A stretch of 64,000 nt of DNA, taken from Escherichia coli. Lineage in GTDB: Bacteria; Pseudomonadota; Gammaproteobacteria; Enterobacterales; Enterobacteriaceae. Positions 52,893 to 52,912 of this stretch are shown here, piece by piece; the stretch's first letter is position 1, and every line of letters begins with the position of its first letter. The stretch is taken from the NCBI RefSeq assembly GCF_013315695.1, contig NZ_CP054353.1; one strand, 5' to 3'. Below the pieces are notes generated by a model. That model was not told the DNA's origin, ran no database searches, and saw nothing but the letters and a program-made list of their open reading frames with translations. A program made the translations under genes and the position numbers.

Positions 52893-52912
52893 TACTGTTT
52901 TTATACACAGTA
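52893..52912. promoter_or_regulatory. LexA (SOS) box upstream of umuDC
   Basis: TACTGTTTTTATACACAGTA = CTGT-N8-ACAG palindrome 20-39 bp upstream of umuD start. Confidence 0.75.

Follow-up and report, generated by a model that had tools for sequence, protein, structure and literature searches.

A LexA operator, an intact umuD and an amber-truncated umuC in a clone of Escherichia coli

The umuDC locus

The window, by which we mean the whole 64-kb stretch of Escherichia coli DNA that was analysed, carries the chromosomal umuDC operon on its minus strand. The hlyE–umuD–umuC–dsbB context is conserved, with the same synteny as in K-12 (b1183–b1184), and a 1,851-bp region matches annotated umuD plus umuC in 5,422 of 5,426 complete E. 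coli genomes. The features of the locus, in the direction of transcription, are as follows.

52930–52935, minus strand: putative −35 hexamer TTGATC, read from the sequence
52893–52912, minus strand: LexA (SOS) box, the umuDC operator, from pattern, K-12 alignment and score
52907–52912, minus strand: putative −10 element TACTGT, 17-nt spacer after TTGATC, coinciding with the upstream 6-nt arm of the LexA box
52454–52873, minus strand: umuD, intact, 139 aa, from open reading frame, Pfam, K-12 alignment and residue check
51342–52454, minus strand: truncated umuC frame, 370 codons plus an amber stop, from open reading frame, Pfam and residue check
51372–51386, minus strand: β-clamp-binding motif QLNLF (PMC3716654), UmuC residues 357–361, kept upstream of the stop, from sequence
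51342–51344, minus strand: amber TAG at umuC codon 371, where all relatives have GAG, through a change at window 51344
51186–51341, minus strand: untranslated umuC remnant, codons 372–422 plus the natural TAA, encoding the DUF4113 tail (RecA-NT-like motif and UmuD′-binding C-terminus)
51148–51167, no strand assigned: GC-rich, terminator-like hairpin between the convergent umuC and dsbB, from a consensus scan only

UmuD gives a full match to Peptidase_S24 in Pfam (E = 1.6e-30), with the Cys24–Gly25 cleavage site and the Ser60/Lys97 dyad present, and V34I is its sole difference from K-12 UmuD. The umuC start at 52454 overlaps the umuD stop by 1 nt, and the same overlap is found in K-12. Because dsbB is convergent, with the hairpin between it and umuC, the operon has no further gene on which the nonsense codon could be polar. 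The gene beside umuD, hlyE (clyA; 53247–54156), is full-length in this clone, at 303 aa, and is disrupted by IS2 in strain GPEC1054.

Reading the promoter from the sequence, we propose the two hexamers above as those of umuDC. The K-12 umuDC promoter has the same −35 hexamer and a 17-nt spacer that is different at one base. A generic sigma-70 promoter scan of the window did not call the umuDC promoter, because TACTGT matches TATAAT at only three of six positions.

The LexA operator

The element at 52893–52912 reads TACTGTGTATAAAAACAGTA on the minus (gene) strand and TACTGTTTTTATACACAGTA on the plus strand, with the umuD ATG 19 nt downstream. Both of its 6-nt arms are perfect against the TACTGT(AT)4ACAGTA consensus, and seven of the eight spacer bases are A or T. 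It is syntenic with, and identical at 19 of 20 positions to, the umuDC operator of K-12 MG1655; the sole difference is A in K-12 to G at box position 7, window 52906. Judged by its sequence, this 20-bp palindrome is the umuDC operator for LexA, orthologous to that of K-12. The initial annotation had placed an SOS box here, upstream of umuD and differing at one position from the umuDC operator, and both statements were borne out.

The identification draws on the full palindrome: TACTGT-N8-ACAGTA, with one mismatch allowed, is matched once in the window against 0.06 expected, which is significant. The bare CTGT-N8-ACAG pattern was rejected as significant by itself, with two matches against 0.55 expected in the 64-kb window and 15 of 100 shuffles reaching two. 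The other CTGT-N8-ACAG of the window, CTGTTAGCAATAACAG at 20387–20402 in the pth–ychF intergenic region, has a poor full-length LexA score and is most likely a chance match.

We scored operator strength as heterology of the Berg–von Hippel/Lewis type, using a small matrix drawn from 16 K-12 LexA boxes (PMC3009722, Table 4) with umuD left out. On the symmetrised matrix the K-12 umuDC operator scored 2.2 and the G variant 3.66, within the 2.05–11.45 range of the 16 known boxes. The boxes of recA (6.05), sulA (5.85) and lexA (7.2) all scored worse than the variant, which was the best-scoring 20-mer of the window (runner-up, 6.31). The asymmetric matrix gave a larger change, from 0.48 in K-12 to 3.77 in the variant, because, read in that orientation, no box of the 16 has G at position 7. 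Four of them (lexA, yebG, uvrD and polB) have C at the mirror position 14, and C there is the same half-site base pair as G at position 7, read from the other strand. These scores suggest that LexA would still bind the variant operator strongly, if perhaps a little less so than the K-12 one. The substitution at box position 7 is a rare natural polymorphism and would probably weaken binding only slightly.

The second-best LexA-like 20-mer of the window, TACTGGATATTTAAACAGGT at 57299–57318, scored 6.3, close to what the recA and dinI boxes give on this matrix. The minC start (57576) is about 258 nt downstream of this 20-mer, which falls between ycgJ and minC.

Truncation of umuC

The initial annotation had also described umuC as cut by an amber codon, and an in-frame TAG is indeed present at codon 371. 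Beyond it, the umuC frame runs unbroken to the normal stop at codon 423. Compared with K-12 UmuC, the window carries four substitutions (R130C, D183E, P261T and T375A) in addition to the GAG-to-TAG change at codon 371. In Pfam, the conceptual full-length UmuC matches IMS (residues 5–150, E = 5.9e-43), HHH (172–200), IMS_C, the little finger (245–360, E = 9.4e-25), and DUF4113 (371–421, E = 2.4e-22). The amber codon removes DUF4113 exactly, with the loss of residues 371–422 (52 residues).

The product that is left, UmuC(1–370), keeps IMS, HHH and IMS_C together with the catalytic residues D6, Y11, D101 and E102. It also keeps QLNLF, a motif with an established role in β-clamp binding. It ends just past that motif. 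The same parts, a core, a little finger and a clamp motif, make up DinB (polymerase IV), which has no DUF4113; the likeness is confined to domain layout, and UmuC, for its part, is not known to be active or stable without UmuD′2 and RecA. No solved UmuC or polymerase V structure was found in the copy of the PDB that was searched, the best matches being Dpo4 and polymerase IV cores over residues 5–332.

A polymerase V operon would carry the DUF4113 tail on the same polypeptide as the rest of UmuC, and the UmuC of the window lacks it. Because the amber codon precedes DUF4113, we file the locus as a umuC pseudogene and not as a functional polymerase V; RefSeq likewise calls the umuC of strain MSB1_4I a pseudogene with an internal stop.

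Possible start codons lie just past the amber. In-frame TTG373 (51338) and ATG374 (51335) are 3–6 nt beyond it, and 7 and 10 nt after a GGGAG. A 49-codon open reading frame (51186–51335, minus strand) starts 6 nt past the amber and contains almost all of the DUF4113 tail; this 49-aa frame stands as a separate gene in automated annotations of metagenome and read assemblies with the amber allele.

Rarity and reality of the two changes

Both changes were sought in 5,426 complete genomes by megablast with centred 45-mers, such that every possible 28-nt seed spans the variant base. The operator G was present in at least 11 genomes, namely MSB1_4I, AF3, eight O145:H28 strains and GPEC1054, and umuC is intact in the ten of these other than MSB1_4I. 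The amber T was found in a single complete RefSeq genome, MSB1_4I. As the window differs from MSB1_4I by 11 single-nucleotide polymorphisms (SNPs) and one indel over 64 kb, it represents an independent genome.

The exact 370-aa UmuC was listed in 455 index blocks and counted on at least 267 contigs, with NCBI isolates UMEA 3304-1 and UMEA 3190-1, human metagenomes from ENA, JGI sequences and Logan read assemblies among the sources. One Logan contig is identical to the window at 4,712 of 4,712 bases, and the flank of one amber locus (L011) has diverged a little, by 23 differences in 7.1 kb. The amber codon and the operator G occurred together in all three loci that were fetched. The intact sister allele, encoding the UmuC of AF3 and AF14, is on 641 contigs.

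A sequencing or assembly error in a umuC that is really intact was the one reading that the initial annotation had set against its claim. That the amber appears in only one of the 5,426 complete RefSeq genomes would fit such an error, but the same 370-aa product recurs in independent sources, on assembled contigs and in a read assembly that matches the window base for base, and the window is distinct from MSB1_4I. We reject the error on this independent recurrence and give it next to no chance. The number of contigs carrying the 370-aa product instead indicates that the amber allele marks an established sublineage and is not a singleton.

Literature searches for the amber allele, for lineages of E. 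coli with a umuC pseudogene and for strains MSB1_4I and UMEA 3304-1 returned nothing relevant. The umuDC system itself is already known; only the umuC amber allele is undescribed.

History of the clone

The window, MSB1_4I, AF3 and AF14 are, by sequence comparison, one clone: AF3 differs from the window at 17 positions in 64 kb and AF14 at 38 positions over 61.6 kb. An intact umuC goes with the operator A in AF14 and with the operator G in AF3, and the operator G goes with the amber in the window and MSB1_4I. These combinations indicate that the operator changed before umuC acquired its nonsense codon. An excess of mutations in umuDC within the clone was considered and rejected, as the two SNPs in 1,851 nt compare with about 1.1 expected from the divergence of AF14.

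Each close relative also has a private nonsense pseudogene within the same 64 kb, in a leucine-rich-repeat protein gene in AF3 and in a TonB-dependent receptor gene in AF14. These sites fall at the following positions.

window 42085–43521: site of the AF3 pseudogene, leucine-rich-repeat protein
window about 34800–36770, by coordinate mapping: site of the AF14 pseudogene, TonB-dependent receptor

Both genes are intact in the MSB1_4I annotation, to which the window is identical there. The periplasmic trehalase gene treA (window 27540–29236) is a frameshifted pseudogene in the MSB1_4I, AF3 and AF14 annotations, and its open frame in the window ends early, at 29111 instead of 29236. The private pseudogenes and the shared treA frameshift together suggest background decay and not targeted rewiring.

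Further differences were noted elsewhere in the window. An IS1 element (29552–30249) lies just downstream of treA in the window, MSB1_4I and AF3 and is absent from AF14. Two tandem long-direct-repeat (LDR) copies of about 485 bp (8145–9164), 97% identical and each with an Ldr type I toxin gene, show six differences from the relatives, clustered at 8352–8501, which looks like gene conversion between the copies. In prfA (12154–13236, minus strand), encoding release factor 1, which reads UAG, the window has a private D71E substitution (window 13024); residue 71 is D in MSB1_4I, AF3 and AF14 and presumably also in K-12. The substitution is conservative and is probably irrelevant to the umuC amber, though a curious coincidence.

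Discussion

We propose, at a probability of about 85%, that the umuDC operon of this clone is still SOS-induced and yields UmuD without a working mutagenic polymerase, making the locus a natural polymerase V null. LexA bound to the operator, which overlaps the putative −10 element and putative start site, would block transcription until RecA-stimulated LexA cleavage. SOS induction would then give a bicistronic mRNA from which UmuD, processable to UmuD′, is made, and on which translation of UmuC would end at UAG371 with a 370-residue product. This product would be without the C-terminus that binds UmuD′2 and without most of the RecA-NT-like motif predicted to dock RecA. UmuC(1–370) unable to bind UmuD′2 or RecA would mean that UmuD′2C–RecA–ATP (pol V Mut) could not assemble, and the orphan protein would probably be degraded by Lon.

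The loss of function is expected from published work on the tail. Timinskas and Venclovas showed homology to the RecA N-terminal oligomerisation motif in the first ~30 residues of DUF4113 and proposed RecA docking by this RecA-NT motif, consistent with RecA-N113Bpa crosslinks to UmuC 361–376 (S370, R367 and Q372; PMC6511836). In a 2025 model by the same authors, UmuC L418–K422 adds a β-strand to UmuD′ (PMC11791011), and UmuD′ binding has been located in the last ~25 residues of UmuC (PMC3901139). Experiments summarised in PMC11791011 found that deletion of the last 26 residues abolished UmuD′ binding and SOS mutagenesis, that removal of one C-terminal residue lowered mutability and removal of two or three abolished it, and that loss of even one made UmuC a rapid Lon substrate. 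The natural allele resembles these engineered deletions in losing the UmuD′-binding C-terminus, but they are smaller, whereas the natural one, at 52 residues, also takes most of the RecA-NT-like motif. The initial annotation had foreseen UmuD and a truncated UmuC after SOS induction, with possible unexpected effects on mutagenesis and the DNA-damage checkpoint. Its first part is supported, in that umuD is intact and UmuC(1–370) is the predicted product; the second is not, since the whole DUF4113 tail is lost and an ordinary umuC null would be expected (PMC11791011; PMC3901139).

The domains that are kept, along with an intact UmuD, could favour a reading in which UmuC(1–370) is active, either working alone as a DinB-like polymerase or competing for the β-clamp in a dominant-negative way, and alters replication restart or the UmuD2C checkpoint. 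Little UmuC, however, is made from the chromosomal gene. Sutton and Walker reportedly showed in 2001 that the checkpoint-like cold sensitivity is an activity of the UmuD2C complex; if so, that activity would be expected to be lost too and not altered in a new way. Far smaller C-terminal deletions already leave UmuC non-mutable and subject to rapid Lon proteolysis (PMC11791011), and it is through the last ~25 residues that UmuC binds UmuD or UmuD′ (PMC3901139). We consider an active truncated protein unlikely. The missing tail could also be partly restored, either by readthrough or suppression of the amber or by restart at TTG373 or ATG374, giving a two-piece UmuC with a tail peptide that binds UmuD′2 and RecA. 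E. coli is known to restart translation beyond nonsense codons, and the in-frame 49–50-codon frame right after the stop covers nearly all of DUF4113. Against a restart, the RecA-NT motif would be split, with its first residues (the crosslinked R367 and S370 among them) left on the core fragment, there would be no covalent tether between core and tail, and the same GGGAG and ATG are present in K-12, marking them as incidental. No tRNA gene, and hence no suppressor, was found within the 64-kb window. Such a partial rescue seems to us very improbable. An amber suppressor elsewhere in the genome, or a second, plasmid-borne polymerase V operon of the mucAB, rumAB or impAB type, is possible.

The operator variant invites a different account, in which the A-to-G change acts like an operator-constitutive mutation, raises basal umuDC expression and leads to selection of the umuC nonsense mutation against the cost of a leaky polymerase V. 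The order of events in AF14, AF3 and the window with MSB1_4I, one clone with 17–38 differences per ~62–64 kb, fits this account, as does the lack of G at position 7 from the reference boxes in that orientation. The change in score is small, however, and leaves a site that outscores several genuine boxes; the G is found with an intact umuC in the O145:H28 lineage and in GPEC1054; the two SNPs in umuDC are not above expectation; and AF3 and AF14 each have a private nonsense pseudogene within these 64 kb. This account strikes us as quite improbable. We see only a slim chance that the locus records adaptive rewiring in a globally sampled, human-associated clone, with a rare operator change followed by loss of polymerase V while UmuD was kept under SOS control; the alternative is neutral decay. 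If adaptive rewiring were true, its routes would be relief from a leaky polymerase V or the UmuC-independent roles of UmuD on DinB, polymerase III and the clamp, and the DUF4113 tail would possibly be re-expressed as a separate peptide by translational restart. Apart from the use described below, the locus is a lineage-specific pseudogene of an ordinary kind, within a textbook operon.

SOS-induced base-substitution mutagenesis in E. coli comes mainly from polymerase V. A clone without polymerase V but with UmuD would be a natural control, for which AF3 is a near-isogenic relative with an intact umuC. The pair of amber clone and AF3 could be used to gauge the share of polymerase V in stress-induced mutation and in the evolution of resistance outside laboratory strains.
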